Notes: generated by a model not told the origin, from the sequence alone. A stretch of 64,000 nt of DNA from a virus (IMGVR_UViG_3300028888_000057), one strand, 5' to 3'; numbered from the stretch's first letter, positions 31,106 to 64,000 are shown. Made by a program: numbers and translations.

Positions 31106-31106
31106 A

Positions 31107-35661: not shown

Positions 35662-35668
35662 CTATTAT

Positions 35669-42555: not shown

Positions 42556-42839
42556 TGTTTAATCCGGGAGACTTAGTTCAGATTAAAACAAGAGAAGAAG
42601 TATTAGAAGAAGGACGGCTGTGTTCCAAAGGTAGCGCGCTTCATAAATATGGCGGATCAATATGTAAGGTTAGAGATGGAGAAATATTTTATCGACTAGA
42701 AAGTGTTGATGTTGTTGATAATTTACCAGATATACATCTCTCAACTATAGAAGATTGGGACTGGAGCAATCGCAACCTGAAACTGGCTTATAATCCCGAA
42801 ATAAACACTAATGAGCTCATGAATTTACTGGAGGCATAA
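42555..42839 (+). CDS. Small SH3/KOW-like protein (family B)
   Basis: Tandem paralogue (GSALHKYGGS). Confidence 0.75.
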   Translation: MFNPGDLVQIKTREEVLEEGRLCSKGSALHKYGGSICKVRDGEIFYRLESVDVVDNLPDIHLSTIEDWDWSNRNLKLAYNPEINTNELMNLLEA

Positions 42840-43135
42840 TGGAATACAAAGTTGGTGAACTTGTTCAGATTAAAACAAGAGACGAAATGATAGCTGAAGG
42901 ATATTTTTGTAGCGAAGGAAGCGCATTACATAAATATGGAGGATCCACTTGCAGAGTTCAGCGTATCGACGGTATGGTTTGCACACTTAACCCTGTTAAC
43001 ATTATAGATAACTTGCCTCATCAATACGAAAAGCCGATTGAAAAATGGAAATGGCATAGTTCAAGTCTTAAATATCCGGAAAACGAAATAAAGATTGATA
43101 TAGATACAATGGTTGATATTTTATCGGAGGCATAA
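42839..43135 (+). CDS. Small SH3/KOW-like protein (family B)
   Basis: Tandem paralogue (GSALHKYGGS). Confidence 0.75.
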   Translation: MEYKVGELVQIKTRDEMIAEGYFCSEGSALHKYGGSTCRVQRIDGMVCTLNPVNIIDNLPHQYEKPIEKWKWHSSSLKYPENEIKIDIDTMVDILSEA

Positions 43136-43936: not shown

Positions 43937-44143
43937 ATGACTCAGGAAAAATATCGTAAGGTAAACGGTCTTGAATATGTCGGCAAACATGTCAAAAAAT
44001 GGTACAAAGTAACAAGAGTAGTGGGTCCGGCTGGGCCAACAATCACGGACAGAGTCCTTGGCTTTGAAGACGCTAAGAGGATGTGTCAAGGCATGTGGGA
44101 CTGGGAAGTTATCCGGGAAGAAGACGGAGCTGTGGTATATTGA
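43937..44143 (+). CDS. Small hypothetical protein
   Basis: GAGGTG RBS. Confidence 0.6.
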   Translation: MTQEKYRKVNGLEYVGKHVKKWYKVTRVVGPAGPTITDRVLGFEDAKRMCQGMWDWEVIREEDGAVVY

Positions 44144-44433
44144 TTCAATATTTAACCCATCAAACATATAAAACGGCAAAAACAAAGAATCCTGACATGG
44201 TTGACTTTCAGATCGTGAGTCGCCGCCAGGTTGAATTTGCAATCTGTATTCGTTTATATAGACAGAAACACGAACTGTCCTTACAACAGTTCGCAAATAT
44301 CGCCAGTAAGTATGGCGTAAAGATTTCAAATGCGGATATATCATGTTATGAACGATATGTTCGTGTCCCATCGAAAAAGAAAATGGAAACAATACTGAAA
44401 GCTATGCACTTGGAACTGAATGATTTGGATTAA
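44140..44433 (+). CDS. XRE-family HTH protein
   Basis: IRLYR.KH.LS.QQFA..ISCYE...P. Confidence 0.7.
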   Translation: MIQYLTHQTYKTAKTKNPDMVDFQIVSRRQVEFAICIRLYRQKHELSLQQFANIASKYGVKISNADISCYERYVRVPSKKKMETILKAMHLELNDLD

Positions 44434-44447
44434 GGAGAGAAAAATCG

Positions 44448-44984
44448 ATGACGTTGGAAGAAAAGATTGCCAAGAAAGAAGCTATGGCCGCAGCTCAGCT
44501 GATTAAAGATCAGATGACGGTTGAGCAGAAGATTCAGTTTTTGAATACACCTTATAAAGATATGCCAGACGAACTGAAAGTTGGAATGGTTAAGAATCCA
44601 CAGAAGTTTATGTTTGTAAAGATGAAGAACCACCGCATTGGAGATCAGAGAGAAACATTCGGTGCGAGGTTGATTCGTTATCGTGATAAATACAGCCTGT
44701 CTCAGAAAGATTTCTGTGAACTGGCCGAAGAATATGGCAAGAATTATAAAGTTCATATTACGCTTCGCGATATGAATAACTATGAAAACTATAACGTAAG
44801 CCCGAAAATCGATAAGATGACCCTGATCGAAGAAGTCATGGGAATGAAAATTGATTACTTTGCCGGATATGGCGCTGAAGACCGTACATGCCGCAACGAG
44901 AAAGTAGAATCTCGTTATCGTGCTAAGAGAGGTAAGAAGGATGCTCCAAGAATTTCTGGACGAGAACATTTGGCTACTGATTGA
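44448..44984 (+). CDS. XRE-family HTH protein
   Basis: FG.RL.RYR.KY.LSQ.DF..NYEN...P. Confidence 0.75.
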   Translation: MTLEEKIAKKEAMAAAQLIKDQMTVEQKIQFLNTPYKDMPDELKVGMVKNPQKFMFVKMKNHRIGDQRETFGARLIRYRDKYSLSQKDFCELAEEYGKNYKVHITLRDMNNYENYNVSPKIDKMTLIEEVMGMKIDYFAGYGAEDRTCRNEKVESRYRAKRGKKDAPRISGREHLATD

Positions 44985-45249
44985 CAAGAATAGGAAAGAA
45001 GAAATTTCAGATTTCTGCGATATTATACAAAATTACATACAGACATGGGCTTATCAAGCTGTAGGGGACTCTTTGTATGAATACTTATGTCATACACGGT
45101 CCGGTCCCTATCATTTTGTGAAAAATAAAAATCACATAACTGGTAATTCTTATCATTATAATCACACAATTGTTTCTTTACGTGATTTTCTCAATAATTT
45201 AGATGAACCTGACATACAAGAAGATGAAATGATGGAGATGTTAAAATGA
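44941..45249 (+). CDS. Hypothetical protein with acidic C-terminal tail
   Basis: ORF ending IQEDEMMEMLK. Confidence 0.6.
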   Translation: MLQEFLDENIWLLIDKNRKEEISDFCDIIQNYIQTWAYQAVGDSLYEYLCHTRSGPYHFVKNKNHITGNSYHYNHTIVSLRDFLNNLDEPDIQEDEMMEMLK

Positions 45250-45382
45250 AACTTGTAGCCACTTTAAAAGTAAAGATTGATGTTGAAGACGATGAGATGC
45301 CTAACCTTTCCAAGGATCGGTTGATTTCAATTCTTCGAGATCTTGGACTTGATTATGAGATTCTTCAGACAGAGGTGGAAGA

Positions 45383-45706
45383 ATGAGCTTAGTATTTGAT
45401 CAAATTCTAAGTCAATTTACAGACTATCGGTCAATCACATCGTTTTGGGATGACTTTACAATCGCAGATGCGTTCGGAGACAGTGCGATTCTTGACACTT
45501 ACAGGCGAGCCTTTGCGGAATGGAAAACTGATTACAAATATCTGACAGAATTGGTGATGGTGCTGAACCACAAGATCTGGCAATGGAACGAAAAGAACGA
45601 AGAGAGAGCCAAGTTATACGATAGCTTGTATTGTCAGGCTAATGATTATGCTCTTAGCAACCTCAAAGACGAAGAGTTGTCATATTTCTGGACTGTTACC
45701 GATTAA
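45383..45706 (+). CDS. Hypothetical phage protein
   Basis: FWDDFTIAD.FG..ELV.VLNHKIW; GAGGTGG RBS. Confidence 0.7.
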   Translation: MSLVFDQILSQFTDYRSITSFWDDFTIADAFGDSAILDTYRRAFAEWKTDYKYLTELVMVLNHKIWQWNEKNEERAKLYDSLYCQANDYALSNLKDEELSYFWTVTD

Positions 45707-46177
45707 GGGGAATTGTATATCATAGTTTCTATAGGAATAAGAACACTCCTTTTTCGTACAATCACCGCTTCCAATCTTGTCGCTTTGACCCGGCGCAAGC
45801 GCCTGTCAACACACACTTACGAAATCCGCAATCCCTTATAACATAACGTTTTCCATGCTATTGGACTATGCGGATTGGTCGGATTAATGAATATTATTCA
45901 TGCCATGCATATATTATGCAGCAAATATTCATAATACAAAATTTGAAAGATGTAATTAAACACACAAACAAAACAAAACAAAGCAAACAGGTAAGAAACA
46001 AACATAAAAAATAAGTCTTAATTTCCGAAATCATTTTAATTTTTTCGTGCTTTTTATTTTATGTTTTTTGCCTTTTTCATGCTTGTTTTGTTCCGGCCCA
46101 TCGCTTCGCTGCGCTCGCTCCGGGCTGGTAGGATGAACGTTTTCATACGTTCGAAAAAGAATTTAAGGAGATAATTT

Positions 46178-46525
46178 GTGAACAATTTAACTATCTATGG
46201 TCGAGTGACCAATGATCCTCAGATGACAGAGAAAGAGATTGGAGGAGTCATTAATCATATTTGTGAGTTTTCCGTCACGGTTGACAACGAAATGTTTAAA
46301 GTTAGGACTATGCGGGAAATTGCAGAGACATGTGCCGCCGAACTGAAGAAGAATGATCGTGTGATCGTAAAAGGAACCGTCGGGCTGAGAAGCTTTGTTC
46401 AGGGCAATATCGTGTATACGAATATGGTTGTCCGAGCAGAGGAAGTTCAGTTTGTAGACCGTGAACATTCAACAGAAAAGAAAGAATATATTATTCAGGA
46501 AGACATCGATGAGATGCCTTTCTAA
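46178..46525 (+). CDS. ssb: SSB-like protein 2
   Basis: N.L.I.GRV..DP; tail DEMPF. Confidence 0.75.
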   Translation: MNNLTIYGRVTNDPQMTEKEIGGVINHICEFSVTVDNEMFKVRTMREIAETCAAELKKNDRVIVKGTVGLRSFVQGNIVYTNMVVRAEEVQFVDREHSTEKKEYIIQEDIDEMPF

Positions 46526-46537
46526 AGAAAGGAAAAA

Positions 46538-46909
46538 ATGAATAAAGTATTTATCGAAGGCAATCTGATTAAAGATCCCAGTACTCAGGATTGCGAATTT
46601 ATTGATAACAGTACCGGTGAAGTTACTAAAGTTAAAGTTTGTAACTTCACCATGGCTGTGAATGATGGATTTGGTGAAAACAAAACCACCACGCTGTTCA
46701 ATGTACATGCATGGCGGTGGCTTGCAGATAAGTGCAGCAAGTTTCTGACAAAGGGTCGCGGTGTCATCGTCCTCGGCACGATCTACGCCGGAAAACCGTT
46801 CAAAGCTCCTGATGGAACAATGACTTCTGTTCTTGATGTGAGAGCCGAAGAAGTAAAGTTTCTCGGAACGGTAAAGAAGGACGATCCTGAAGATGACTTT
46901 CCCTGTTGA
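46538..46909 (+). CDS. ssb: SSB-like protein 3
   Basis: NKV.I.GNL.KDP, F.MAVN, KG..V.V.G; tail DDFPC. Confidence 0.8.
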   Translation: MNKVFIEGNLIKDPSTQDCEFIDNSTGEVTKVKVCNFTMAVNDGFGENKTTTLFNVHAWRWLADKCSKFLTKGRGVIVLGTIYAGKPFKAPDGTMTSVLDVRAEEVKFLGTVKKDDPEDDFPC

Positions 46910-46935
46910 TCTCTAAGATCAACACCTGCCGCTAT

Positions 46936-46976
46936 GGGGCCGGTGTTTGATGGGGGCACCGGCTCCTTTTTCTTTT
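46936..46976 (+). terminator. Intrinsic terminator
   Basis: GGGGCCGGTG/CACCGGCTCC plus T-run. Confidence 0.7.
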
Positions 46977-46989
46977 GAAAGGAAAACTT

Positions 46990-47460
46990 ATGATATATAG
47001 AGTAAATGATTATGACTGGACTATGGATACGATTGACGAAGTAATCGATTGGTGTATTACATCTGATTATCATGAAGATGAAGATGAGTTCAAAGAATAT
47101 GTCAATGAAATTTATTGTGATCAGCAAATCGAAATCGCCGGAAATACTTATTATGCGTTCGATGCATTAAAGAGTAACCAGCATGAATACGACAGATTGA
47201 TGCGAGAATACTGTGAAGAGCAGAACAACTATGATGCAGAAGAAGCTCGTTACGAACTCGAAAGAGCAGACAACGGAGAAGTTGTCTATATTCAGGGCTA
47301 TAGAGTAACTTGCATTGACGAGTCCGGCGCCTATGATGGTAATGAAGATGTCCAGTGCGAAGAAAAGATTGACCCTGTCAAAGTTGTAAAAGAAGCTTTG
47401 GAAACGCAAAAGATCAAAGAAGAACAAAACTTCTCTGACTTGGTGCAGATTCTAAGGTAA
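46990..47460 (+). CDS. Acidic hypothetical protein
   Basis: AAAGGA RBS. Confidence 0.65.
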   Translation: MIYRVNDYDWTMDTIDEVIDWCITSDYHEDEDEFKEYVNEIYCDQQIEIAGNTYYAFDALKSNQHEYDRLMREYCEEQNNYDAEEARYELERADNGEVVYIQGYRVTCIDESGAYDGNEDVQCEEKIDPVKVVKEALETQKIKEEQNFSDLVQILR

Positions 47461-47474
47461 ATCAACGAGATGTT

Positions 47475-47585
47475 TTGAGTGGTGGTGCAATAGGTAGACA
47501 CAACCCGGTTGGATATTTGTCTGGATTGGACGAGGAGAAAGCCGGAATAACAATCCATGTGAGGTGCAAATCCTCACCCGCTTAA
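47475..47585 (+). ncRNA. tRNA-like RNA with TGCAAAT T-loop, copy 2
   Basis: TTGAGTGG/CCGCTTAA stem, D arm GTG-CAATAGGTAGA-CAC, T arm identical to the copy at 35832. Confidence 0.55.
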
Positions 47586-47715
47586 CATACAGTCATGAAG
47601 AGGAAGAAAAGAACGATGGATTGACTGGAATGACAAGCGGTTTGAACTCGGGTTTATCCCGGTTCAGCCGAACTTGTCGAATTATTAAAGATTAAAATTT
47701 AAGGAGATTAAAACC

Positions 47716-48363
47716 ATGAAGGAAACAATGACGATCCACAAGGCTTTGAGTGAACTGAAGGTTCTGGATGCACGTATTGAAAGTGAAATTACTGTCACAA
47801 CATTCGTTGTAGCCAACAAGCACAGCAACAAGAAGATCAATGGTGTTGATGTTACTGAGTATGCGGCTACCGTCAAGGATGAATACAAGTCTATCCGGTC
47901 TCTGATTAACCGTCGCAATGCGATTAAGCGTGCTGTTACGCTGTCCAACGCTGTGACGAAGGTTAAGATCGGTGACAAGGAATATACTGTCGCTGAAGCA
48001 ATTGACATGAAGAATGCCGGAATGAATAACTATCAGCGGCTGCTGGATCAGATTGGGAATAATCTCAAGTATGCCCAGCGGAAATGTGAAGGCGAGAACG
48101 GTGAAAAGCTGGATCAGCGAGCTGAATCTTACCTGAAGACTATGTTTGATTCTGCCGATCCCAAGAATCTTTCTGAGGAGATCGAAAAGCAGAGGAAGGC
48201 CTTCATCGAGTCTCAGTCATTCGAGCTGGTAGATCCGATCAATGCTTCTGATGTCCTGAAGGAACTGAAGGACATGACGGATACGTTTATGAGCGATGTT
48301 GATTCGGCTCTGTCCGTGTCTAATGCTCTGACTTCGATTGAAGTAGAGTACGAAACCCTGTAA
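47716..48363 (+). CDS. Coiled-coil protein resembling the DIP1984/septicolysin-like family
   Basis: MT..KAL.ELK.LD.RI, I..SN..T.V.I....TVAEAI, D.ALS.SNA.T.I.V. Confidence 0.65.
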   Translation: MKETMTIHKALSELKVLDARIESEITVTTFVVANKHSNKKINGVDVTEYAATVKDEYKSIRSLINRRNAIKRAVTLSNAVTKVKIGDKEYTVAEAIDMKNAGMNNYQRLLDQIGNNLKYAQRKCEGENGEKLDQRAESYLKTMFDSADPKNLSEEIEKQRKAFIESQSFELVDPINASDVLKELKDMTDTFMSDVDSALSVSNALTSIEVEYETL

Positions 48364-48369
48364 ATAAAG

Positions 48370-48710
48370 ATTGCCTGGACACGAAAATTCTAAACGATAT
48401 TCTCTGTGAGTTTCGCGAAGTCTCTCAGGTCAAATAAATAAAACTTCGCTCCATGGTTTGTAGCGAAAGACTGTAAATCTTTCGAACAAAAGATTGCAAC
48501 TGTTAACTGCAATTTGATGTTTAATAAACATATTTTCTCTGTAAAGCTCAAACCTGAAAGCTGAAAGCTGAAACTTTATCGTTAAAAGTTTAATTCGTGT
48601 AAAGATAAAGGATTATACACTAAAGAGAAAAGTTAGATCAAATCCTGTGTAAAGGTTTGTCGGATGAATATCCTGCCGCTGAAGGCTCCGTCAGGCTGTG
48701 TTCAGGCAAT
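48370..48710 (+). ncRNA. About 340-nt stem-closed RNA with a 7-nt periodic tract
   Basis: 13-bp terminal stem ATTGCCTGGACAC/GTGTTCAGGCAAT; internal hairpins; heptamers at 48539-48638. Confidence 0.7.
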
Positions 48711-48843
48711 TATATTTTTATAAATACCTTTCCGTTTTGTTTATATGCTTCAGGCGTTGTGCATTAAACAGCGCTTACCAGTCCCATCTGGGATGATATA
48801 CCATACACATATCGAAAAATTAGGAAAGAGAGGGATTAAAAGT

Positions 48844-49455
48844 ATGGTTAAGGTTACTGTTATTACTGCTGGAGGACGGAAGACTGACAATTTTGATGAG
48901 GCGATGACTCCGAAGGAAATTTTGGAAGCGCTGGACGTGGATTATTCTGCGGCTACGAACTCTCTGGATGGCGCTCGTCTGGACACTCGGGGCATGAACA
49001 CTTCGCTGCGTGAACTTGGCGTTGGTGAGACCGCTCGTATGACTTCCATTGTGAAGATCGACAATGCGGCTAACATCACGCTGGCTGGTTCTGCGGCCGT
49101 GGTGACCTCCGCCGTTTCTCTGGAAGATCTGAAGCGTGTGGAGAAGTTTGCTCCCGAAGCGCTGAAGATCGTGGACGAGGATGGAGAGACCGTATTCAAG
49201 GTCTGCACTCGGGAGAACTCTGCTGGTTCTATCAACAAGTACGGCGTTGTCTTCGGTTCTGTTGTGAATCATGAAGGCAAGGCGACCGTTACCGTCGTGA
49301 TCGATCCTGATATCGAGGACAAGCGGGAAGCGGTGAAGGACATGATGGGTGCTGCCATTCTGGACCTGAACTCGATCGAGAAGGAACTGCCTGAAGTCCT
49401 GAAGGATATCGCAGAAAAGGAGAAGGAGATCGAAGGCTGCATCGAGCAGAAGTGA
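48844..49455 (+). CDS. Ubiquitin-like (beta-grasp) domain fused to a C-terminal domain
   Basis: V.VTV....T..EIL..L.V......LDG..L......L.ELG......SIVK pattern; highly biased codons; first gene of the E2-JAB-E1 operon. Confidence 0.65.
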   Translation: MVKVTVITAGGRKTDNFDEAMTPKEILEALDVDYSAATNSLDGARLDTRGMNTSLRELGVGETARMTSIVKIDNAANITLAGSAAVVTSAVSLEDLKRVEKFAPEALKIVDEDGETVFKVCTRENSAGSINKYGVVFGSVVNHEGKATVTVVIDPDIEDKREAVKDMMGAAILDLNSIEKELPEVLKDIAEKEKEIEGCIEQK

Positions 49456-49463
49456 TCTTCTTT

Positions 49464-49499
49464 GGAGGGCGGCTTGCGATAGTCGCCCTCCTTTTTTTT
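49464..49499 (+). terminator. Intrinsic terminator or attenuator between the Ubl and E2 genes
   Basis: GGAGGGCGGCT/AGTCGCCCTCC plus T8. Confidence 0.75.
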
Positions 49500-49525
49500 A
49501 GAAAAATTCAAGGAGATTACGAAAA

Positions 49526-50947
49526 ATGTTTAGAAATAACGTTGAAGTATTTGACCCCATCCCAAAGGAATATCTTGATCAGTTCAAGAGACCGCTTAAT
49601 TCGTTTGACTATGCGTTGGATGTTCTTGGCCTTGCACTGCTGAAGCCAAGGATTGAAAATTATAATGGTATTGAAGGTGTCTTCTGTAGTTATGAATCTC
49701 TGCAGACAGCCGTTGAAGATTGCAAACCTGAACTCAGAACGCAAAATCCACAGTTCTACTTTATAACATTCGAAAACAATAGCGAAGATGTTGATTTCTC
49801 CGCTTTCAAAGACTTCACTCGTTTCACAAGGTTTGAAGAATATCTTAAGAAGAATGCTGACCGCAACGCAGTAATCTTCTATCATGAAACTGAAAACATT
49901 GTTTATATCTTTATTGACAGCAGGCAGCTGAACATTTATCATCTATGTCTGTTCATGCTGTCCAAGTATTATCCGGCTCTGTTTAAAGCACATCCGTTAA
50001 CTGAGAAGGAACTGATTCTGACCAAGACGTTATCAAAAACGGATCGTGAGGCATTCCAGAATGAAATCATGAACAACCTTGGCGATCTGACTGAAGTGTT
50101 CAAGAAGATCCGAATCGCTTCTTTGATTCGTCAGTTCCACCAGAACAAGATCGATGTCGCAAAGAAGGATCTGGCACAGATCGAATCTATGCTTCGCGAT
50201 GTTATGGAACAGTACGCAAATTACTCCAAACAGCGGAAAGAAAAACTTGTGTGGCTGACAGGACTGAATGAAACGGAAAACGAAACTGAGGAAGAAAAGG
50301 AAATCGTTGAGTATCTGTCGACCAACAGCAAGATTCACGACGTTAAGATTCAGGACGGGCGGATCAAGTTCAGCGTTGCAACAGAAATGATGCAGTATAA
50401 TCCTGATGCATATGAAATCTATGCAAAGAAAGGATATATCTTTGATGGCCACTATAACGAGTGGTGGGCAGACATGTCTACTTTGACAGGAGTGTTCGCA
50501 GAACGTGACAACAGAAAACTTCTGCTTGATCATATCTTCAATGAAGATCCTGATTATCGTATCAAGCTGTGTGGTAACTACGATCTGGATATGAACGATA
50601 ATGAAGTCAGAACCAATTCGGATTATCGATACGTTGGATCTGCATTTGAAGACTGTTTGCCGAATCCGCATCTGAGAATTCATCGTTGCCTGGGTGGATA
50701 TGAAGAAAAGATCATGAATGCTCTGTACAACAACGAACTGATGAGCGCACTGGAACTGTGCGTATATAGTGCTGGATCTGTCGATCTGGACGAAACTGAA
50801 CAGACCTTCCGGCCACTGATTGGCTGGCTTTGTACTACTCAGAAGAAATGCCTGTTGGATCGAGACGGAAACAGTTTAACGCCGGAAGAAGCGATTGTTC
50901 AGATCAAAGACAAGGAGAAAGAAAATGAAGCCGATTGTGCTGACTGA
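49526..50947 (+). CDS. Coiled-coil protein with C-terminal prokaryotic E2-like domain
   Basis: PNPHL....CLG motif resembling the E2 active site; operon context. Confidence 0.6.
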   Translation: MFRNNVEVFDPIPKEYLDQFKRPLNSFDYALDVLGLALLKPRIENYNGIEGVFCSYESLQTAVEDCKPELRTQNPQFYFITFENNSEDVDFSAFKDFTRFTRFEEYLKKNADRNAVIFYHETENIVYIFIDSRQLNIYHLCLFMLSKYYPALFKAHPLTEKELILTKTLSKTDREAFQNEIMNNLGDLTEVFKKIRIASLIRQFHQNKIDVAKKDLAQIESMLRDVMEQYANYSKQRKEKLVWLTGLNETENETEEEKEIVEYLSTNSKIHDVKIQDGRIKFSVATEMMQYNPDAYEIYAKKGYIFDGHYNEWWADMSTLTGVFAERDNRKLLLDHIFNEDPDYRIKLCGNYDLDMNDNEVRTNSDYRYVGSAFEDCLPNPHLRIHRCLGGYEEKIMNALYNNELMSALELCVYSAGSVDLDETEQTFRPLIGWLCTTQKKCLLDRDGNSLTPEEAIVQIKDKEKENEADCAD

Positions 50948-51764
50948 TAAAGCAAAAGAAGTAATGATGAAGCACTTCATGGAGAAATTCAACAAAGCTC
51001 TCGATGAATATGCGTTCAATATTGACAAGAAAAAGTTTTCCTTTGAAGCTGAGATAAATCAAGTTGCCAAAGAAAAGGTTCATATTGTTTATAGCCCGAC
51101 AGCATATCTGAGAATGCTGAAGCTTGTTAATTATTATGAGTCTGAAGTAACTTGGTATGGTTTGGTTAAGAGGCTCGACGAAAAGACGTATCATGTCTAT
51201 GATGTGATCGTTTGTCCGCAGTACGTATCTGGTGCCAAAGTCGATACGGATGATGATGAAACGATGGAGTTCTTCGGTAATCTGACGGATGAGCAGGCTG
51301 AAAATATGTATTATCAGGCGCATAGTCATGTGAACTTCTCGACCGAAGCTTCTGGTGTTGACTTGCAGAATCAGATTGATATTCTGGGTAATATGCTGAA
51401 TAAAGATGGATTCTTCCTGTTCCAGATTTGGAACAAGAAAGGAGAAGTCAGCACTTATCTGTATGATCTCGGAGCCAACATCTTCTACGATTCCAAAGAT
51501 GTAGTCATGGAGATCGAAGATCCGGATTATGAATCTCTGGATGCGTTTGTCGAAGCCAATAAATCCTTGGTGAAAAAAAGAGAAGTAAAACCAGTCGCAA
51601 ACATCGGAAGAAACGATGGATGGTACGGTGATTGGCCGAAAGGCGCAGCCGGATACGGATCTGGTTACGGTTCCGGTTATTATGGTGGATACAACAGAAA
51701 TGATGATGCATATTATGTAAATGGATACAATTATCAGAATGGGAGGTTCTTTGACGAAGAATGA
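50925..51764 (+). CDS. JAB/JAMM metallopeptidase
   Basis: E(V)..YG and HSHVNF....SGVD; Gly/Tyr-rich tail. Confidence 0.85.
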   Translation: MKPIVLTDKAKEVMMKHFMEKFNKALDEYAFNIDKKKFSFEAEINQVAKEKVHIVYSPTAYLRMLKLVNYYESEVTWYGLVKRLDEKTYHVYDVIVCPQYVSGAKVDTDDDETMEFFGNLTDEQAENMYYQAHSHVNFSTEASGVDLQNQIDILGNMLNKDGFFLFQIWNKKGEVSTYLYDLGANIFYDSKDVVMEIEDPDYESLDAFVEANKSLVKKREVKPVANIGRNDGWYGDWPKGAAGYGSGYGSGYYGGYNRNDDAYYVNGYNYQNGRFFDEE

Positions 51765-52447
51765 ACTTAGCAAAGAGTTTTGAATTCTTTAATCCTGAAA
51801 AGGTAAAGGATCGTATTCATATTATCGGATGTGGTTCTGTCGGATCAACGGTTGCAGAACTGTTAATTCGGGATGGTCTGAAGAACTTCAGCCTGTACGA
51901 TTTTGATACAGTAGAAGAACATAATCTTGTAAACCAGATGTTCACCGGGGACGATCTGTATAAGCCTAAAGCACACTGTGTAAAGAATCGGATGATCCAT
52001 GTGGTTCCTGAGTCTGATCGAAAAGAACTCAGCGAAACGATCAAGGTGTATGATAAAGGCTGGACGGGTCAGAGGCTGTCTGGTTACATTTTCCTCTGTG
52101 TGGATAATATCGAACTTCGAAAGAAGATCGTGGAAGACAACATGTATAATAACTCTGTCAAAGCGATGTTTGATTTCAGAACGGCACTGACAAGTGGTCA
52201 GCACTATGCAGCTGACTGGTCTGACGCAAAACAGATTGCAGATTTGTTGGACACAATGGATTTTACACATGCAGAGGCTGAAAAGAACACACCGCTGTCT
52301 GCCTGTAAGGTATCGATGTGTGTCGCTCCGACGGTCTGGGCTGTAGCGATGGCCGGGGTTGTAAACTTTATGAACTTTGTAAAGGACGGAATCATTCGGA
52401 ATCAAGTTATTGTAAACCCGTTTGATTTCAATATCATTGAACTTTAA
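51761..52447 (+). CDS. ThiF/E1-like adenylyltransferase
   Basis: IIGCGSVGS, DFDTVEEHNL.NQ, CVDN..R, candidate catalytic Cys in SAC. Confidence 0.9.
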   Translation: MNLAKSFEFFNPEKVKDRIHIIGCGSVGSTVAELLIRDGLKNFSLYDFDTVEEHNLVNQMFTGDDLYKPKAHCVKNRMIHVVPESDRKELSETIKVYDKGWTGQRLSGYIFLCVDNIELRKKIVEDNMYNNSVKAMFDFRTALTSGQHYAADWSDAKQIADLLDTMDFTHAEAEKNTPLSACKVSMCVAPTVWAVAMAGVVNFMNFVKDGIIRNQVIVNPFDFNIIEL

Positions 52448-52451
52448 TGAA

Positions 52452-52732
52452 TTATCATAATGAAAACGTAGAAATACTCTTTAGATGTTATTTAAAGGAA
52501 CGATTGGCTGGATGAGTAGGTCGCTGCGGGCAGGTCCTGAAGGCGCCCAGTGGAGTGTCGATCCGCTGGCAGAGAGGCTGGACGGAGGTGGCAGGTCAGC
52601 GCGATCCGACTGAAAACCGGGAAAGTGGAGATTCAAATCCGGAGAAGACGACCAATTGGATCTCGAACGCGTCCAGCGGGCCCTGGAGGAGCACCTCGTG
52701 CGGCAGCGGATTTTCCTTTTAGATTATGATAA
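52452..52732 (+). ncRNA. Retron-like msr/msd RNA, upstream copy
   Basis: Inverted repeat TTATCATAAT/ATTATGATAA, G at 52462 directly after the stem, GC-rich nested stems. Confidence 0.7.
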
Positions 52733-52742
52733 GGATAATAAT

Positions 52743-53867
52743 ATGATTTACATAACAAGAAAAAGAATTGCAATACCCAAACAAGTGACTTTGGAAGACA
52801 TCTTGTTGGACCGAGAAATTCCGGAGTTAAAAGATATAGGAACAAGCACACTGACAAGAGTTTATCCTGAAACTCCAGATGAGCTTAAACATTGTTTCAA
52901 TATTGATTTATTAATCAAATGGTTGAATGACTTCAATGAACGACATGCTGAGCTATTCCAAAGAGATAGAAACAGTATGTATTATCAGTTCAAAATACCA
53001 AAGAAAACAGGAGGATTCAGAGAAATTGATGCTCCTGTCAAAGAGTTGCAGAGCGCGCTAACAGAAGTGGTTAATTTTCTAAAGAATCAATGCAATATTC
53101 TGTATCATACGGCGGCATTTGCCTATATCGAAGAGAGAAGCACGGTAGATTGTGTCAGAAGACATCAGAAAAACAATAGCAATTGGTTCCTGAAACTGGA
53201 TATTAAGAGCTTCTTTCCAAGCACTACGCTGAAGTATCTGATGCACATCAGCAGCATGACGTATCCACTGTCGGAAATCTGCAAGGTTCCAGAGGGAAAG
53301 TCAGCGTTGGAGAGGACATTCAGTCTTGCTTTTAAAGATGGCAAATTGCCACAGGGAACAACATTAAGTCCGTTGATTTCGAACATTGTAATGTTGCCAA
53401 TAGACTTTAAGGTCTTCAATACATTGGCAGCAAGAAAGATTGTATATACTCGTTACTGCGATGATATGATTATCTCGGCTCAGGAGAAGTTTCCGTGGCA
53501 GGAAGTTGTAAAGATTGTCAAAGATGCTTTTACAGAAATGGGAGCACCATATCGGATCAATGACGAAAAGACAAGGTTTGGATCAAAGAAAGGAAGTAAC
53601 TTTAATCTCGGATTAATGCTGAATGGAAACAATGATATCACTGTAGGTTATAAGGCGAAGAAACGCTATAAAGCTGCGCTGTGTTCATTTATCCAGGATA
53701 CAATCCATGGAAATCGTTGGCCGCTGGAAGATGTAACGCATCTGAACGGGCTGACAAGTTACTATCGCTATCTGGAGAAAGAATATTTTGATCAGATATG
53801 GAAAAGAGCAAGCGAAAAGTGGAACGTAGATATTGGTGCTTTGTTTAAATCATATCTATCAACGTAA
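52743..53867 (+). CDS. Retron-like reverse transcriptase (374 aa)
   Basis: IPKKTGG.R.I.AP, AFAY, LKLDIKSFFPS, LPQG..LSP, YTRYCDD, NLGL; no maturase or endonuclease domain. Confidence 0.9.
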   Translation: MIYITRKRIAIPKQVTLEDILLDREIPELKDIGTSTLTRVYPETPDELKHCFNIDLLIKWLNDFNERHAELFQRDRNSMYYQFKIPKKTGGFREIDAPVKELQSALTEVVNFLKNQCNILYHTAAFAYIEERSTVDCVRRHQKNNSNWFLKLDIKSFFPSTTLKYLMHISSMTYPLSEICKVPEGKSALERTFSLAFKDGKLPQGTTLSPLISNIVMLPIDFKVFNTLAARKIVYTRYCDDMIISAQEKFPWQEVVKIVKDAFTEMGAPYRINDEKTRFGSKKGSNFNLGLMLNGNNDITVGYKAKKRYKAALCSFIQDTIHGNRWPLEDVTHLNGLTSYYRYLEKEYFDQIWKRASEKWNVDIGALFKSYLST

Positions 53868-54008
53868 ACAATGAAGAGGCAGTTACATGCACTTTTGATG
53901 TGATTAGAAGAGAAGAAATGGTATTTAGTCTGATGATACTATCGGTATTTTCAGGGATAAATTCCTGAAAATACAGCTATTATCATAACTAAAGTTTAGA
54001 TTGTTTAC
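53864..54008 (+). ncRNA. Retron-like msr/msd RNA, downstream copy
   Basis: Inverted repeat GTAAACAAT/ATTGTTTAC, G at 53873 after the stem, long hairpin at 53924-53993. Confidence 0.7.
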
Positions 54009-54011
54009 TTT

Positions 54012-54046
54012 TAGTGCGGATGCCTCGGGTGTCCGCACTATTTTTT
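54012..54046 (+). terminator. Intrinsic terminator closing the Ubl-RT operon
   Basis: TAGTGCGGATGCC/GGTGTCCGCACTA plus T6. Confidence 0.8.
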
Positions 54047-54076
54047 CATGTTATGCAATTATATTTGATAAAATCT

Positions 54077-54163
54077 TTGAAGCCATGCGAAACGAGCCTT
54101 AAAGGTAAAACACAAAATAGTTAGGTACCGAACTATGAAGCCATGCGGAACACAACATAAAGG
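54077..54163 (+). promoter_or_regulatory. Two tandem putative phage promoters with a palindrome between them
   Basis: TGAAGCCATGCG..TAAAGG twice; TTAGGTACCGAA at 54121-54132. Confidence 0.6.
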
Positions 54164-54226
54164 AAGAGAAAATTATTCCGTATCGGAATTCACATAAATA
54201 AAAGATGATGGAAGGGGGCTCAACAT

Positions 54227-57200
54227 GTGTCTTCGGTGAAGACATACCTGCAAGATCAGGTAAGGTTGGTAACGCTGAGCAGTAACGATTTATTTACAGA
54301 TGATGAATATAGTCAATATGTAAAGATCGTGCAGCTAGGCAACACGTACAACGAAAGGATCGGAAAAGGAGAAGACAAGGATACTCTGAAGCCAATTCTC
54401 CGGGAAAAAGAAAAGCTCAAAGAAAAATTGTCAACAACTATTCAGAAAAGAGGGGAGAATCCTCGGGTTGTTAATCTGAACATGGTTGTTCATCATTCCA
54501 AAGACTCTCCATTTCCATTTCCGAAAGGTATTACGTGGAAAAATCTCAAAATCACACGCAGGATTGCAGAATTTTCATGTGAACTGACAAGAGCAATGGG
54601 TCTCAATAATCTGGACTGTACGCTTGATCTGATCGTGATTAAATGGAAAGACTTGAATCTTCTGAAGCAGCTGGTACTGTATGGATTCTATATGCCGATT
54701 CTCCATGGAGACGAAGTTGAAATGAGACACTATCAGTTTCTGACTGCATCAGCCGGACAGTTGAGACGCGACAAAACAATCTTCATTTCGGATGAGATGT
54801 GGAACAAGATTCACAGACGCATCGAGTGTGGAATGAACTGGGAAAGAATCAATGTTCATGGAGGTATCGTCGCAAATAAACTGCTGGCTTATATTGCGTT
54901 GGCTAACAGTGCTACGGATGTCTGGACGGACTTTGATATTGACCGGTGTATTGTCATAGACGATTTCGAGGCTGAAGTAACTGATCGAATGATGTATATT
55001 AAGGAAGATTATACATATGAGATCGGTAAACGAACGGTAATGATCAACCACACTGATGGATGTGGAATGATGCTGCCAACAGTCTCGAAACTGAATTTTA
55101 TGACAAGACTGCCATTCATCAAAGGATTGCTTGTGAGCTTTGATTATATTAAATTCTGCAAAGTCAATAATGTTCCTCCGATTATCAAGGATATTTATGG
55201 CAAAGAACATGACCTGATTAAAGAAAATATACAGATAATCTTTACGAAGAGTATGTTCAAAGCCTATAAGTATTTTGAAAGCTTCGAAGAGTACAAAGCA
55301 GAATTTAAAGCATGTGGCGCACAGGCCGGAATTACCAATTATGAAGAAGAGTATATTCCGGATGCGACATTGAATTATCAATTCATTCAAACACTAGTAA
55401 ATTTTACTGATGAGGAGATACAACAATTCATCAAAAATGATCATGATAAGATTGAAAAGCTTGGAACCAACAAAGATTCAATGTTGAACACGTTGGGAGC
55501 CAGAAAGGAATCTGACAATCCTTATAAAGCGGCGCTGGCATACTATCCGGAACTGTTGAGAGAAGCGTATAGCAAAGAAACGATTCGAGCGATCAGGAAG
55601 AGTATGATGCTGGATGCAAAGTCTGGAAAGATTCACTGCGAAAACAAGAGATTGTTTGCAGTACCTGATCTCTACGCCGCCTGTGAGCGGTGGTTTATGG
55701 GGATCGAAGAACCAGAAGGATTGTTAAGGGGAAATGAAATAGCTTGTCTGCCGTATAGAAGGCATGATAAAGCAGATGTTCTAAGAAGTCCGCATTAACA
55801 TAGGTGCCTTTACACAGTAATGTGTATCGAAAAATGTGGTTAACCTGTAAATACAGGGTGTCGCTGAAAAGCGGCTAACGGAGAACGAACTAAACGATAG
55901 AGTTTGGAGGTGAGAAAATGAGCAAGCTTAAAGATTTAACTGGACGGATGTTTGGATTTCTTTACGTTCAAAGAAGAATGCCTAATTATGTTCAAGAAAA
56001 CGGAAGAACAAGAACGAGATGGCTAACAACGTGTCTCTTGTGTGGAAAAGCTTATGTTGCAGATGGTAGTCATTTGCTGCACGGTGATATTATTAGTTGT
56101 GGCTGTTTTAAGAACATGAAAAGCGCATTAAGAGGTCAAGAATATACAGGCGTCCAGAAACCAATTCGAGATTTGACCGGCATGAAATTTGGATATCTTA
56201 GAGTAATTGAAAGATGCGAAAATTTTGGGCCAAAAACAGCATGGTTATGTTTGTGTGAGAATTGTGGCAGTTATACAAAGGTTCGCTCGAATCATCTCCT
56301 TCGAGGATTAGTATCCAGTGATGGCTGTATAAAGTCTGTAAGAGAAGAGCAAATGGCAAAATGGTTTAATGAACACAAAATTCCATTTGAAAGAGAATAT
56401 ACTTTTCCAGACTTATTAGGCGAAGGTGGAAGTAATCTAAGATTCGATTTTGGTTTAATAGACAAGAAAAATAATTTAATTTGTTTAGTTGAATATCAAG
56501 GAGAACAACATGGTTTAGATAAAACTGGAGAGTTTGGCAGACAACAAAGAGAACAAACTGACAAACAAAAAATTGATTATTGTTTAATAAACCATCTTGC
56601 TTTTCAAAGTGTTTGGTACAATAGAGATTTTGAAGAGCAAATGCAAGAAATCGAAAAGTTCTATCGCAAGTCAACTGCCGTGCCAAACCGGAAAACCGGA
56701 AGGTGTATCGACTATCCCGAGAGGGAGTAGGGTTCAAGTGAAACTCTTGAATTCGAAACGCCACACAACCCGTAAGGGCTGATGACATAGTCAACTCCGC
56801 TACGAAATATCGGGAAACCGACGGTACGAAGGTTAGCAATGGAACATTTTATCTGCCCAATTGTTCATGATCAGAAAATATATGATTGGTTTTATACAAA
56901 CGGAGTCGTAACTTCTTGTCACAGCATGGTATCGAGGGTGCTCCAGTTCGATGTCGATGGAGATCAACTTAACGTAATTGTTGATCCGTTATTCATTAAG
57001 GTTGCTGAAAAGAATATCAAAGAGTTTGACGTGGTTCCATTATTCTATGACGCAGAGAAAGGTGATGCTACTCTGATGTCAAAGGAGGCACAGTTTGAAG
57101 GTCTGAAGATTGCCCATGAATATTCAGGTATCGGAGAAATATCAAACATGCTGACAAGACTATGGAATCGAAATACTCAGGACAGGATTGCTGCCGCATT

Positions 57201-58080
57201 TCTTTGCAGATTTAACAACGCTGTGATCGATGCAGCAAAGATTGCCAAGATCAATCACTATAATCAGTATCCTGAAATTGAAAAACGTATCAACAAAGCT
57301 ATAGGAGGCAAGAACTCACGTATGCCTGCTTGGTTCAAGTACTCTAAGAATCAGAGGAAAAATGGCAATGAACACAAGCAGTATGCAAAACCCAATAACT
57401 CAACAATGAACCGAATATCTTCTTACTTTGATGATATTGGAAAGATCAACATGAATTTTGCTGGGGTGCCGTCATTCAACTGGCAAATGCTTCTCAGCGG
57501 GCCGTGTACAAATACATGGCCGGAAATTCCAATGCTGTTCTGTGAGATGGATAATGTTAATATTTCTAACGTAATCGAATCTCATGACATTCCTTATGCA
57601 TCTGAGAAACAGAAGATCAATGGTTATTCCATGATGGCAGAAATGATCAAGGATGAAATCATTGATCAGTTTGGTTCGTTAGAAACTGCATATCCGTATG
57701 TAGTAAAACATCTGTTTGCAGGAGAAGGTATGAATAAAGCCGCTCACAAACAGATGTTCTGGCGCGTGTTTGGCAATATTGCGCTGGAAAACTTAAAGAA
57801 AAATGTTAACAACTGTGATGTTTGTCCGGATTGTAAGATGAGAATCCCATCGTGGGTGAAGGATCATTATTGTGTGAAGAATACATCCGGCTTCTATGAA
57901 TGTATAGATTGCCATAAGATGTGTGAAAGAACTTCTTCATCGCAATATCGATGCGCAGATTGTCAAAATAAATATCGACTAACACAAAGAAAACTGGCTC
58001 AGAGAAACCGTCGAAACCAATTGAAAGAGGATGAAGAGAAACGTATTGTTTCCTGGCTATCGTCCTTCAGGGAGATATAA
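54227..58080 (+). CDS. YonO-like single-subunit RNA polymerase in two exons: 54227-55795 and 56833-58080 (938 aa)
   Basis: TASAGQLR, HTDGCGM, R.PFIKG, spliced RSPH/LAMEH, catalytic FDVDGD, IDAAK. Confidence 0.88.
55796..56832 (+). mobile_element. Group I intron in the RNAP gene
   Basis: P1 GCAU/GUGC, GACUA and GACAUAGUC elements, terminal G; removal restores the frame. Confidence 0.85.
55918..56730 (+). CDS. Intron-encoded homing endonuclease (Zn repeats plus Vsr/PD-(D/E)XK-like domain)
   Basis: Two DLTG..FG.L.V..W.C.C.CG..SCGC repeats; LRFDF..VEYQGEQH..D..K. Confidence 0.8.
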   Translation: MSKLKDLTGRMFGFLYVQRRMPNYVQENGRTRTRWLTTCLLCGKAYVADGSHLLHGDIISCGCFKNMKSALRGQEYTGVQKPIRDLTGMKFGYLRVIERCENFGPKTAWLCLCENCGSYTKVRSNHLLRGLVSSDGCIKSVREEQMAKWFNEHKIPFEREYTFPDLLGEGGSNLRFDFGLIDKKNNLICLVEYQGEQHGLDKTGEFGRQQREQTDKQKIDYCLINHLAFQSVWYNRDFEEQMQEIEKFYRKSTAVPNRKTGRCIDYPERE

Positions 58081-58205
58081 AAAACGGTTCTTTCTGGCCG
58101 TCGTATATTCTTTGTAAAGCGCGAACTGAATCAAGTAAGCGTTCTGGATTCAGAGTCGTAAGTCAGGTCGATGGACAAACAAAGTTTTCGCTGCCGAAGG
58201 TTCTG

Positions 58206-58604
58206 GTGACAGAGTTATACGGTCATCAGGATTTGATCAATTATCTCTCAATATACTGTACGAGAGATAAGGCTGGCGGAAGAAAATACTTTCCCCGTGG
58301 TGCGTTGTGCTGGTTTGAATGTAACCGGTACGGTGAACCATTGGGTTCAGTATATTACATTAAAAGGGTACCGGATACATCCATGTATTTTGTGACAAAG
58401 ACAGGTCATGTTTTCGCTCAGAACACTTATCGGAAATTCGTAGAAGCTAAAGCACGTAAAAAAAGCATAAATGAAATTCTGTCAGGTGACATCAAGCTTG
58501 AAAAATATTATCTGTCTCACAAAAAACCGATCCTGTATCAACCAACTGGAAGAAGGAGAAAAAGAAATGCCGGCAAAGAAAACGGTAGAACAAGAAGTTC
58601 CTGA
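58206..58604 (+). CDS. Hypothetical basic protein; start uncertain
   Basis: The frame stays open well upstream of the GTG, to about 58035. Confidence 0.5.
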   Translation: MTELYGHQDLINYLSIYCTRDKAGGRKYFPRGALCWFECNRYGEPLGSVYYIKRVPDTSMYFVTKTGHVFAQNTYRKFVEAKARKKSINEILSGDIKLEKYYLSHKKPILYQPTGRRRKRNAGKENGRTRSS

Positions 58605-59286
58605 AGTTATCCATCATAACATGAGGTTTTATGGACAAGTTCAGGATACGCCGCAAGAAGCGAGAAAAGAAATCGCAGCTGGAAGACTTAAGGGCTATAC
58701 GGATATTAATCCGATGTGGCGAATCAAGAAGCTTACAGAGATCTTTGGCCCCGTAGGATACGGATGGTGGACTCAAAATGAAAAGTATGACCTCCATACC
58801 TGTTCCAACGGAGAAGTCGCAGTATTCTGTACGCTCGAATTGATCATAGTCGACCCTGAAACGAATGAGCAATCACATCCGATTACAGGTATTGGTGGCA
58901 ACAAAGTCGTATCCAATGAAAGAAACGGTGTATATTGCAATGATGAAGCGTATAAGATGGCTTATACGGACGCTCTGTCAATTGCTTGTAAGGCACTGGG
59001 CTTCAGTCATGATATTTATTATCAGAAAGATAGAACCAAATATACGGCTCTGTCTTCTGATGATGCTCCTGCTGCTGAAGTCAACACAACAGAAATCGTA
59101 TCTCGGATTCAGAAGGGAATCAACTTCCTGACAAAAGACATGAACAATGAACAGAAAGACAAATTCGTGATGGATGTTGTTGTTCCCAAGATTGGTAATC
59201 CAAACTATATGGCGTGTAAAGATGTGGTCAAGTTACAGGCTCTTCTCGATACGCTGCTGACTATGTCCAAGGCCAAAGCAGCTTAA
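58567..59286 (+). CDS. Rad52/Sak-like single-strand annealing protein
   Basis: INPMWRI..L.E.FG..G.GW, GIGG, DEAYKMA.TDALS.A...LG...DIY. Confidence 0.8.
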   Translation: MPAKKTVEQEVPEVIHHNMRFYGQVQDTPQEARKEIAAGRLKGYTDINPMWRIKKLTEIFGPVGYGWWTQNEKYDLHTCSNGEVAVFCTLELIIVDPETNEQSHPITGIGGNKVVSNERNGVYCNDEAYKMAYTDALSIACKALGFSHDIYYQKDRTKYTALSSDDAPAAEVNTTEIVSRIQKGINFLTKDMNNEQKDKFVMDVVVPKIGNPNYMACKDVVKLQALLDTLLTMSKAKAA

Positions 59287-59433
59287 AGCTGTTTAGCACT
59301 CCCGGGAGTACGTGCGCTCCCGGGAGATATTGTCTCATTAAACAGAAAAATTCAAGTGCGCACTTATAGATAGAAAATTCCCGAGACCAGTAATAGCACG
59401 AATAAAAAACTATTAACTGGAGAGAAAATTATT

Positions 59434-59814
59434 ATGGCAAATGATGCAAAAGTATGTATTGTTGGAAATCTGATCAAGGATCCTATGCAGAACAATTATA
59501 ACAACTCAACTGTTGTCTCTTTCATCGTGGCCGTTAAGACCACCAAAAAGGATGCGGAGAATAAACCTGTTTCTGACCTGTACAGCGTAAGCGTATGGGG
59601 AAAGTTCGGAGAAGTTCTTTATCCCATGATGCAAAAGGGAACGATGGTTCAGGTAGTTGGCGACCTGATCCTTCAGGAATATACCGATAAAAAGACCGGA
59701 GAAAAGAGAGAAGGTCTCGCAGTGCGAGCTTCTGACGTAAAACTGCTGGCAAAATTAAAGAGCGCCCCGAAGAATAATAATGATGATGATTATTCTGGGC
59801 CAGACCCATTCTAA
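59434..59814 (+). CDS. ssb: SSB-like protein 4
   Basis: GNL.KDP, F.VAV, V.VWGK, KG..V.V.G.L; tail DPF. Confidence 0.85.
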   Translation: MANDAKVCIVGNLIKDPMQNNYNNSTVVSFIVAVKTTKKDAENKPVSDLYSVSVWGKFGEVLYPMMQKGTMVQVVGDLILQEYTDKKTGEKREGLAVRASDVKLLAKLKSAPKNNNDDDYSGPDPF

Positions 59815-59899
59815 TAAGTAAATAATAATCTGCAATGAGCTACCGAGTGAGAACTTGGTTCTGTTGATGTAATTAGCAGATTCGAAAAGGTAAATAATC

Positions 59900-59938
59900 G
59901 AGTTTCCTGGCTGCCAAACTAGGGCAGCCAGGAAACTC
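59900..59938. repeat. Perfect 16-bp inverted repeat upstream of the primase-helicase gene
   Basis: GAGTTTCCTGGCTGCC-N7-GGCAGCCAGGAAACTC. Confidence 0.85.
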
Positions 59939-60007
59939 ATAACAAAATAAATCTTAAGATTGCAGAAAAATATAAAAAAAGGGAAAAAGAAAGGAACAGA
60001 AAATATT

Positions 60008-63946: not shown

Positions 63947-64000
63947 TATATAGAGCAAGCGTTCTGACAAGAATGGGAAACTATTCAAAAGAATTCGCTA

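Follow-up and report, generated by a model that had tools for sequence, protein, structure and literature searches.

A phage block in which a retron-type reverse transcriptase with several putative template RNAs adjoins a ubiquitin-like conjugation cassette

Both retrons and the ubiquitin-like systems of bacteria are known weapons of hosts against phage. In known retrons, the reverse transcriptase (RT) and its multicopy single-stranded DNA (msDNA) hold an effector in check. The bacterial ISG15-like system Bil (BilABCD) gathers ubiquitin-like (Ubl), E2, JAB and E1 activities in one operon, and eukaryotic ubiquitin is made fused to ribosomal proteins or as polyubiquitin, a cut at its last residue releasing the active tag. 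Here we describe a locus in a 64,000-nucleotide stretch of viral DNA, IMGVR_UViG_3300028888_000057 (hereafter the window), in which a block on the plus strand at 48844-54040 carries a Ubl fusion gene, genes for an E2-like protein (E2L), a JAB/JAMM metallopeptidase and a short ThiF-family E1-like enzyme, and a retron-type RT gene accompanied by putative template RNAs. Both types of weapon are thus found on the phage side, locked together, in an arrangement whose E2L family alone counts 2,506 cluster representatives at 50% identity and E ≤ 0.001 (1,350 at E ≤ 1e-30). A full-text literature search found no paper describing the pairing of a retron with a ubiquitin-like cassette; we read the arrangement as a variation on known kinds, a phage-borne retron partnered by a ubiquitin-like cascade and provided with several templates, which is widespread and undescribed in the literature searched.

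Linkage between the RT gene and the Ubl cassette is found from whichever end the search begins. IMG/VR scans with E1 and JAB alignments returned 281 and 159 relatives, respectively, and in 156 of the 160 loci that were kept the RT gene lies downstream of E1, the misses falling mostly at contig ends. The reverse survey, starting from the RT, returned 546 relatives, and among the best 80, which were inspected, E1 lies upstream in 76; the other four RT genes lie within 1.2 kb of a contig end, and none with enough upstream sequence lacked the cassette. An earlier note on this DNA, made from the sequence alone, had proposed a conjugation operon continuous with a retron and named a survey of neighbourhoods as a check, and by these counts the RT gene is not a sporadic neighbour. 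Among GTDB species genomes, 56 JAB relatives were found, almost all in metagenome-assembled genomes (MAGs) of gut Clostridia, with taxa that include Oscillospiraceae, Lachnospiraceae, Ruminococcus and Christensenellaceae, and 42 of them have an RT gene in the fetched flank. Where the flanks are long and the RT is missing (four loci), two have an RT gene 6-7 kb further downstream, one is a MAG with none and one is a short contig. The linkage persists across E2L homologues down to about 20% identity and despite rearrangement of the Ubl gene and its fusion partner, in flanks that are themselves unstable: the 494 flanking open reading frames (ORFs) of 40 non-redundant loci fall into 347 clusters, and the best-shared flanking gene, encoding an RNA polymerase, is present in 17 of the 40. 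Because the linkage is bidirectional and holds across deep divergence and changing flanks, a functional tie between RT and cassette is reasonably likely. The form of that tie which we prefer, tentatively and at a little short of an even chance, is one composite two-arm phage system, in which a Ubl cascade is joined to a multi-template retron whose RT-DNA-RNA particles would gate the cascade, the whole being used in conflict. The sole cultured-isolate match of the JAB scan, in Allochromatium humboldtianum DSM 21881, is a distant E1-then-JAB pair (28% identity) without matches to E2L, Ubl or RT, and probably belongs to a different system.

The first gene of the block, ORF1, encodes 203 residues from an ATG at 48844 that is preceded by a ribosome site of the GAGAGGG type, and all of its homologues begin M-[IV]-K-V. 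In an AlphaFold model derived from an alignment of 41 homologues (pLDDT 95.6), residues 1-72 form a beta-grasp of the ubiquitin/SUMO fold. Foldseek aligns this Ubl domain with SUMO1 and ubiquitin at TM scores of 0.6-0.7 and a root-mean-square deviation (rmsd) of 2.3-3.3 Å, and VIA structural comparison matches it to many ubiquitin-like domains at Z 8-9, among them 8tyz_B, the Ubl of a solved bacterial E1-E2-Ubl complex (Z 8.7, rmsd 2.5 Å, 74 residues aligned). Together with the ends of homologous proteins, these matches delimit the domain to residues 1-75, ending K-I-D-N-A (48844-49068, plus strand). The remainder of ORF1, a partner domain here called X (128 residues; 49069-49455, plus strand), is seen in the model as residues 77-203, consisting of a beta-rich core and a 40-residue C-terminal helix. 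Domain X has no Pfam match and no Atlas match, and its structural relatives are limited to uncharacterised gut phage proteins of 130-139 residues (TM 0.80-0.85); the VIA matches to the ORF1 model are filled by the Ubl domain, so that X was barely probed in that comparison.

The boundary between the two domains is informative in light of their arrangement elsewhere. Free-standing Ubl genes, found in dozens of loci, stop at K-x-D-N-A, some with one to three residues more (DNAA, DNAR, DNALAA, DNATSK), and a few variants end DGGC; the window's Ubl has no terminal glycine and ends K-I-D-N-A75, most relatives ending D-N-A and a few DGG(C). In 62 loci X has a gene of its own, immediately upstream of that for the Ubl, whereas in 32 loci and in the window it follows the D-N-A directly as a fusion, and in the alignment the start of free-standing X coincides with the residues that follow D-N-A in the fusions. 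Since the Ubl is fused to X exactly where the free-standing Ubl ends, processing by the JAB peptidase is implied: judged from these sequences, the Ubl would be a tag that needs a peptidase to expose its final residue, in the manner of ubiquitin precursors, with Ala75 (window position 49068) as its probable mature end and the operon's own JAMM peptidase as the obvious candidate for the processing enzyme. The arrangement shares with eukaryotic ubiquitin fusions an N-terminal tag and a cut that would release the second protein in equal amount; it differs in that the partner X is a phage protein and in that processing is presumably carried out by the operon's own JAMM peptidase. Fused, split and tail-extended Ubl forms occur side by side in the same family, a natural experiment on tag maturation.

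Downstream of ORF1, the E2L gene (49526-50947, plus strand) encodes a protein of 473 residues carrying the motif LPNPH-x5-C-LGG, in which H382 and C388 are invariant in 38 homologues, down to 14-20% identity. Its model (pLDDT 92) starts at the N terminus with an alpha/beta domain, continues with a 65-residue helix and ends in a C-terminal domain whose secondary structure runs helix, four strands, loop, helices, an order that we read, from the model, as that of UBC domains. By VIA, residues 255-420 match RWD domains (Knl1, 4nf9, Z 7.2; Ltn1, Z 6.6 and 6.3) over about 91 aligned residues, and these are the sole structural matches of the model apart from coiled coils; the RWD domain we take to belong to the UBC-like superfold. 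The invariant His-x5-Cys lies where the active site of an E2 would be. Searches of Pfam, NCBIfam and PDB sequences gave no match to E2L, none of the 38 family members matched a Prok-E2 family, Foldseek found no match of the model in the PDB at E ≤ 0.001, and the matches in the Atlas were viral hypothetical proteins only. Given the UBC/RWD-like fold and the invariant H382 and C388, E2L is treated as a likely, not a proven, E2-like protein. The earlier note had called this gene E2-like on the strength of its PNPH..CLG motif; the motif, the RWD match and the invariant His and Cys are in favour of that call, and E2 identity is moderately supported, with no sequence-family match behind it.

The two enzymes encoded next are more readily classified, and here the same note was right on both counts. 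Its JAB protein (HSH..S..D), a metallopeptidase of 279 residues (50925-51764, plus strand), has the complete JAMM motif with its spacing (E74, H133-S-H135, S143, D146), the H133-x-H135 and the others being invariant in 35 homologues; 11 of the 35 family members match Pfam Prok-JAB, and the family profile matches the RPN11 deubiquitinase at E 1.4e-3. Its ThiF/E1 gene (51761-52447, plus strand) encodes an adenylating enzyme of ThiF type (Pfam ThiF, 1.3e-20), 228 residues long with an invariant C182, whose profile matches UBA5 (2e-14), Uba1, MoeB, MccB and Cap2.

Comparison of this cassette with described systems brings out likenesses of organization more than of sequence. As in Bil, the same four activities are encoded in one operon (the E2 role being filled by a protein that is E2-like only), and the Ubl resembles 8tyz_B. 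Unlike Bil, the operon is phage-borne, its 473-residue E2L is enlarged by a coiled coil and a sizeable additional domain at the N terminus, its Ubl has Ala as the last residue and X as a fused or separate companion, and an RT and RNAs are attached; no ORF of the block has a Bil-named match in PADLOC or NCBIfam, libraries in which the presence of Bil models is unconfirmed. With type II systems of cyclic-oligonucleotide-based anti-phage signalling (CBASS) the block shares a JAB partner, and the phage E1 matches the E1 part only of Cap2 (PADLOC E1-E2, 1.5e-16; Cap2 structures, about 5e-10). Cap2 is a fused E1-E2, whereas the E1 (228 residues) and the E2-like protein are here encoded by separate genes, and the CBASS tag is the tail of an enzyme, whereas here it is a true ubiquitin-fold protein. 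No CD-NTase match was found among the nine ORFs scanned, and the block holds no cyclic-nucleotide effector. The PRTRC (ParB-related, ThiF-related) cassette of plasmids and integrative elements, which is defined by a PRTRC-type ThiF, proteins A-F and a ParB-related protein, likewise includes a ThiF-family enzyme, a JAB protein and E2-like proteins; in NCBIfam, the phage E1 scores 29 bits against PRTRC_ThiF, for which the cut-off is 144.75, the other four block proteins match no PRTRC family at E ≤ 1, and no ParB-like gene was seen in the block. In the PRTRC literature found, the cassette is mentioned by name only. As far as sequence comparison with these libraries can tell, then, the likeness of the block proteins to Bil, Cap2/Cap3 and PRTRC families ends at the generic ThiF fold.

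The RT gene (52743-53867, plus strand) encodes 374 residues that match RVT_1 at 9e-22 and, as the best PADLOC hit, retron RT_II-A at 1e-51; nearly all of the best 25 of 77 PADLOC matches are to retron RT models. In NCBIfam the best match is retron_St85_RT (8e-55), at 186 bits against a cut-off of 235, and by these profile matches the enzyme is a retron-type RT and not a curated St85 member. D153, D240 and D241 are invariant, the window's enzyme having YCDD where the family has YADD. A conserved N-terminal extension of about 60 residues contains invariant Thr residues and bears on one reading of the locus, namely that the target of the Ubl is the RT product itself (the small DNA or RNA) or the N-terminal extension of the RT, giving a covalent protein-nucleic acid particle. 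An invariant Thr in that extension, a Ubl end that is Asn-Ala and not Gly-Gly, and the presence among the profile-related ThiF enzymes of MccB, by which a peptide end is joined to a nucleotide, would all suit this reading. It is nevertheless very improbable, the combination of a Cys-bearing E2-like protein with a JAMM enzyme being the classic set for tagging one protein with another, and some relatives having a Ubl with the standard Gly-Gly end.

Two structured RNAs flank the RT gene, and a third lies at a distance. RNA 1, a putative template RNA resembling an msr-msd (52452-52732, plus strand), was recognized from an inverted repeat (I3), covariance models and covariation. It is closed by a 10-base-pair (bp) terminal stem (52452-52461 with 52723-52732), directly past the 5' arm of which stands a conserved G (G52462), followed by a variable hairpin and then by hairpin 2, which has an AUGUUAU loop. 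Its core of 200 nucleotides (nt) has a G+C content of 61%, as against 40% for the phage, and it scores 58.8 bits with covariance model R1 and 51.3 bits with model R2, which describes the shared 5' part. RNA 2 (53861-54011, plus strand; inverted repeats I21 and I1) has a 12-bp terminal stem, the equivalent G at 53873, a hairpin with an AUGUGAU loop (53892-53910) and a 26-bp A+U-rich hairpin (53933-53986); it scores 31.1 bits with R2 (E 7e-5) and has a fold z-score of -4.2. A match of the Rfam L20 leader over RNA 2 is a chance match. RNA 3 (59829-59966, plus strand) lies 6 kb downstream of the block, directly before the primase-helicase gene, and was identified with R2 (45 bits, E 3e-8) and from its sequence, stem register and fold: an 8-bp terminal stem, G59837, a hairpin with an AUGUAAU loop and a perfect 16-bp hairpin (59900-59938). 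R2 thus finds three RNA copies in the window, and all three contain a long template hairpin. A fourth R2 match, at 42831-42902 (19.8 bits, E 0.04), was rejected as ordinary coding sequence without an AUGUnAU hairpin.

Covariation supports the shared part of these structures. Across 13 RNAs, the eight innermost pairs of the terminal stem amount to 104 cells, all but one of which (103) can pair, five positions show compensatory changes, and the unpaired G past the 5' arm is invariant in all 13 and faces an invariant AG; this G is the putative branch point. The pairing of hairpin 2 holds in 95.8% of cells, compared with 67.5% in shuffled and about 40% in slid controls, and six of its seven pairs change on both sides. 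Close relatives (L002 and L085) carry two tandem RNA copies between E1 and RT. Outside the window's own subclade model R1 does not find the RNA, and RNA counts are accordingly confined to that subclade. In six other loci (L026, L031, L032, L073, L080 and L105) the RT gene begins 4-17 nt past E1, leaving no room for a template RNA between them, and the RNAs of those loci must therefore lie elsewhere. Three rumen RNA runs from two studies each yielded a separate contig over 52477-52719, ending inside the borders of RNA 1, with word depths of 47, 24.5 and about 12 compared with 0-7 for contigs of neighbouring genes. Depths and ends of such assembled contigs are weak evidence, which neither distinguishes DNA from RNA nor reveals a branch; they are a faint hint that RNA 1 accumulates as a discrete species. 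RNAs 2 and 3 have no usable cover in these contigs, a gap with no bearing on whether they are expressed.

Among retrons the nearest are those of type II-A, which in the 2020 retron classification of Mestre and colleagues is said to be the St85/Sen2 and Ec86 family. The phage block shares with them a retron-type RT, an upstream RNA with a long-range terminal stem whose 5' arm has a conserved G at its inner end, hairpins for recognition (the msr part) ahead of a template hairpin (the msd part), and accessory genes in the same block. It differs in its setting, a large phage instead of a bacterial defence island with one RNA per RT; in pairing one RT with three template RNAs, one of them 6 kb off, whose products are predicted only; and in accessory genes that encode Ubl, E1, E2-like and JAB proteins and not a toxin-type effector.

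How the two arms might work together can be set out from these parts, and we infer the processing site, the thioester relay, the synthesis of DNA, the coupling of the arms and the targets. In the composite two-arm reading, the Ubl-X precursor would be cut by the JAMM peptidase after Asp-Asn-Ala75, freeing the carboxyl end of the Ubl together with X. The short E1 would adenylate the freed end, probably relaying it via a thioester on C182, and the Ubl would then form a thioester with C388 of E2L before being attached to lysines on target proteins, the JAMM enzyme perhaps also stripping the tag. A strong terminator past the Ubl-X gene may ensure that much tag and little enzyme is made. In the other arm, the one RT would copy three RNAs by way of their common 5' recognition part (terminal stem, conserved G and AUGUnAU-loop hairpin), and because the template hairpin differs from one RNA to the next, three different small single-stranded DNAs would be expected. 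By analogy with known retrons, the RT-DNA-RNA particles may be the sensing or gating part and the Ubl cascade the acting part, and the phage would use the system in conflict with host defences or rival phages. The earlier note had offered two possibilities, the ligase module as the retron effector or its use by the phage to tag proteins of host defence or of rival phages, and the present evidence favours neither over the other. A more specific variant, in which the small DNAs directly license or aim the ligase, so that tagging of host-defence or rival-phage proteins is gated by or linked to nucleic acid and fast-changing templates give several specificities, is quite improbable. Should the arms cooperate, the locus would represent a new type of retron, having a cascade for protein tagging as its partner, as well as the first natural retron in which one enzyme has several templates and a new viral use of ubiquitin-like tagging; the one-enzyme, many-template layout could also be useful where retrons are employed to make DNA inside cells.

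Several observations weigh against a composite system. In the MAG L240 the cassette is present, yet none of its 2.6 Mb encodes an RT. Phage L038 has undergone a clean loss of 1.54 kb, comprising RNA and RT, and has kept the Ubl cassette: when its positions 7754-7799 are compared with 7799-9338 of L037, the deletion is exactly that of template RNA and RT, and the cassette and downstream genes are 91-97% identical. Searches for longer proteins containing E1 or RT found no E1-RT or RT-X fusions, which is weak evidence. On the side of the conjugation arm, E2L matches no E2 family by sequence, its structural match at Z of about 7 falls in the range that VIA calls common, and the end of the Ubl is atypical, with Ala in place of the usual Gly. 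Finally, placement next to replication genes in the closer clade looks more like that of a core function than of a swappable defence island.

Some of these points would be expected if two independent modules merely travelled together, a stand-alone phage retron, with DNAs serving for example as decoys for host nucleases or sensors, beside a separate Ubl-tagging cassette, their adjacency resulting from common descent and shared expression timing and not from joint function. Besides the clean deletion of the RNA and RT unit in L038, the MAG with a cassette and no RT, and the missing fusion proteins, such a pairing would accommodate the 6-7-kb insertion that can split the two and the gene resembling DUF6273 that stands between E1 and RT in several loci. 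That gene encodes 250-265 residues with a weak DUF6273 match (for instance at 7694-8491 in L027 and 7684-8436 in L064), and the gap between E1 and RT is there 1.1-1.4 kb. Because the RT unit is separable and fusion proteins were not found, the two-module explanation stays alive, yet it is rather unlikely: linkage was found in both directions and over the whole depth of E2L divergence, it survived both the turnover of flanking genes and the rearrangement of Ubl and X, and every one of the best 80 RT relatives with enough upstream sequence had its cassette.

Position in the genome bears on a different explanation, in which the block serves the phage life cycle, namely the replication or assembly of the phage itself; the Ubl might, for example, be attached at a fixed time to proteins of replication or of the virion, whether from phage or host, and the small DNAs might regulate or prime steps at the replication module. 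In the closer clade the block has a stable and near-universal position between a tail-fibre gene and a block of RNA polymerase, exonuclease and primase genes, and RNA 3 lies directly upstream of the primase-helicase gene; moreover, Iyer and colleagues reportedly traced, in 2006, an old link of Ubl and JAB domains to phage tail assembly. Among RNA polymerase relatives, which were found by an alignment-based scan (a single-protein scan found nothing), the cassette lies just upstream in 28 of the 32 at 46% identity or more, and it is absent within 10 kb in all of those at 44% or less. Three relatives at 46-47% identity join the latter in having no cassette nearby, and in L038 the RT was lost without loss of the phage contig, both of which argue against a life-cycle function. 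The template cores, which have no counterpart elsewhere in the window or among the roughly 375 loci fetched, are not conserved even in close relatives and hence fit poorly with a fixed replication role. A life-cycle function is, on balance, unlikely, and the composite two-arm system remains the reading that we prefer.

The layout of the block is that of a compact unit framed by two terminators. The first, an intrinsic-terminator-like hairpin and T-run after the Ubl-X gene (49464-49499, plus strand, from a hairpin scan), begins 9 nt past the ORF1 stop with a hairpin at 49464-49491 of 11 pairs, eight of them G-C, followed by T8. The second, of the same kind and source, closes the block (54012-54046, plus strand) with a 13-bp stem at 54012-54040 that includes seven G-C pairs and a T6 tail. 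Between 49491 and 54012 the scan found only weak hairpins, within genes. The JAB gene overlaps the E2L gene by 23 nt if counted from ATG 50925, which is the most likely start (a TTG at 50895 is the alternative), and the E1 gene overlaps the JAB stop by 4 nt; a gap of 295 nt separates E1 from RT and one of 144 nt separates RT from the second terminator. For the RT, ATG 52743 is most likely the start, because homologues have about 380 residues and begin M-x-Y-I-T; a start at TTG 52656 was rejected as an artefact, since the ORF would run into RNA 1. The earlier note had described a Ubl-domain gene, a terminator, overlapping E2-like, JAB and ThiF genes, and then an RNA-RT-RNA series with no terminator before 54012. 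Each gene was found where it had been placed, the Ubl fusion being confirmed by its predicted beta-grasp and the retron assignment by the RT_II-A match and the retron-like RNAs; structured RNAs do lie on both sides of the RT gene, and the next strong terminator is indeed the one at 54012-54040. As read from the sequence, this layout is compatible with a single transcript.

That the block is carried by a phage, as had also been proposed, is borne out by its surroundings. The window belongs to a large, lytic-looking phage whose minus strand (12-20 kb) encodes portal, terminase and major-head-like proteins; it also has a tail-fibre gene (47716-48363), genes for an exonuclease, a primase-helicase and two RNA polymerases of the YonO-like single-subunit kind, and eight tRNA genes. 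A sheep gut metagenome is its source and the only run containing the full stretch. The phage collection searched gave no near-DNA match to the block and no match to E2L by tblastn, and the RT is covered over at least 80% of its length in one record only, MT835544.1.

Several neighbouring genes are interrupted. An HNH homing-endonuclease ORF (55918-56730) divides the YonO-like RNA polymerase gene downstream of the block (phrog_8308, with a weak Pfam RdRP match) into two parts, 54227-55798 and 56839-58080; the halves are contiguous in relatives such as L166, and the interruption within 54227-58080 probably represents a mobile intron or an insertion of like kind. The polymerase has a second paralogue, divergent in sequence, at 23135-26500. 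The primase-helicase gene (phrog_239) is likewise in two pieces (59960-61225 and 62015-62815), between which lies a group I intron-like RNA at 61749-62005, whose 31.6 bits (E 1e-4) against Rfam RF00028 fall short of the gathering score; apart from this sub-threshold intron and the L20-leader match mentioned above, an Rfam scan of 44000-64000 found no family. Seven of the tRNA genes (Ala, Pro, Leu, two Gln, Ser and Thr) are on the plus strand in clusters at 30346-31181 and 35575-35746, and tRNA-Asn is on the minus strand at 16102-16177. The spacer between the tail-fibre and Ubl genes (48380-48701) is not a tRNA gene by ARAGORN and gives no alignment among relatives, several of which have tRNA genes there. 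Separate contigs from RNA libraries lie over it at high word depth (61 in X5, 32 in X12), and a YGTGTAAAG-like motif occurs in it four times, at intervals of about 50-65 nt; it may serve as a leader, as a small RNA or as an array of promoters.

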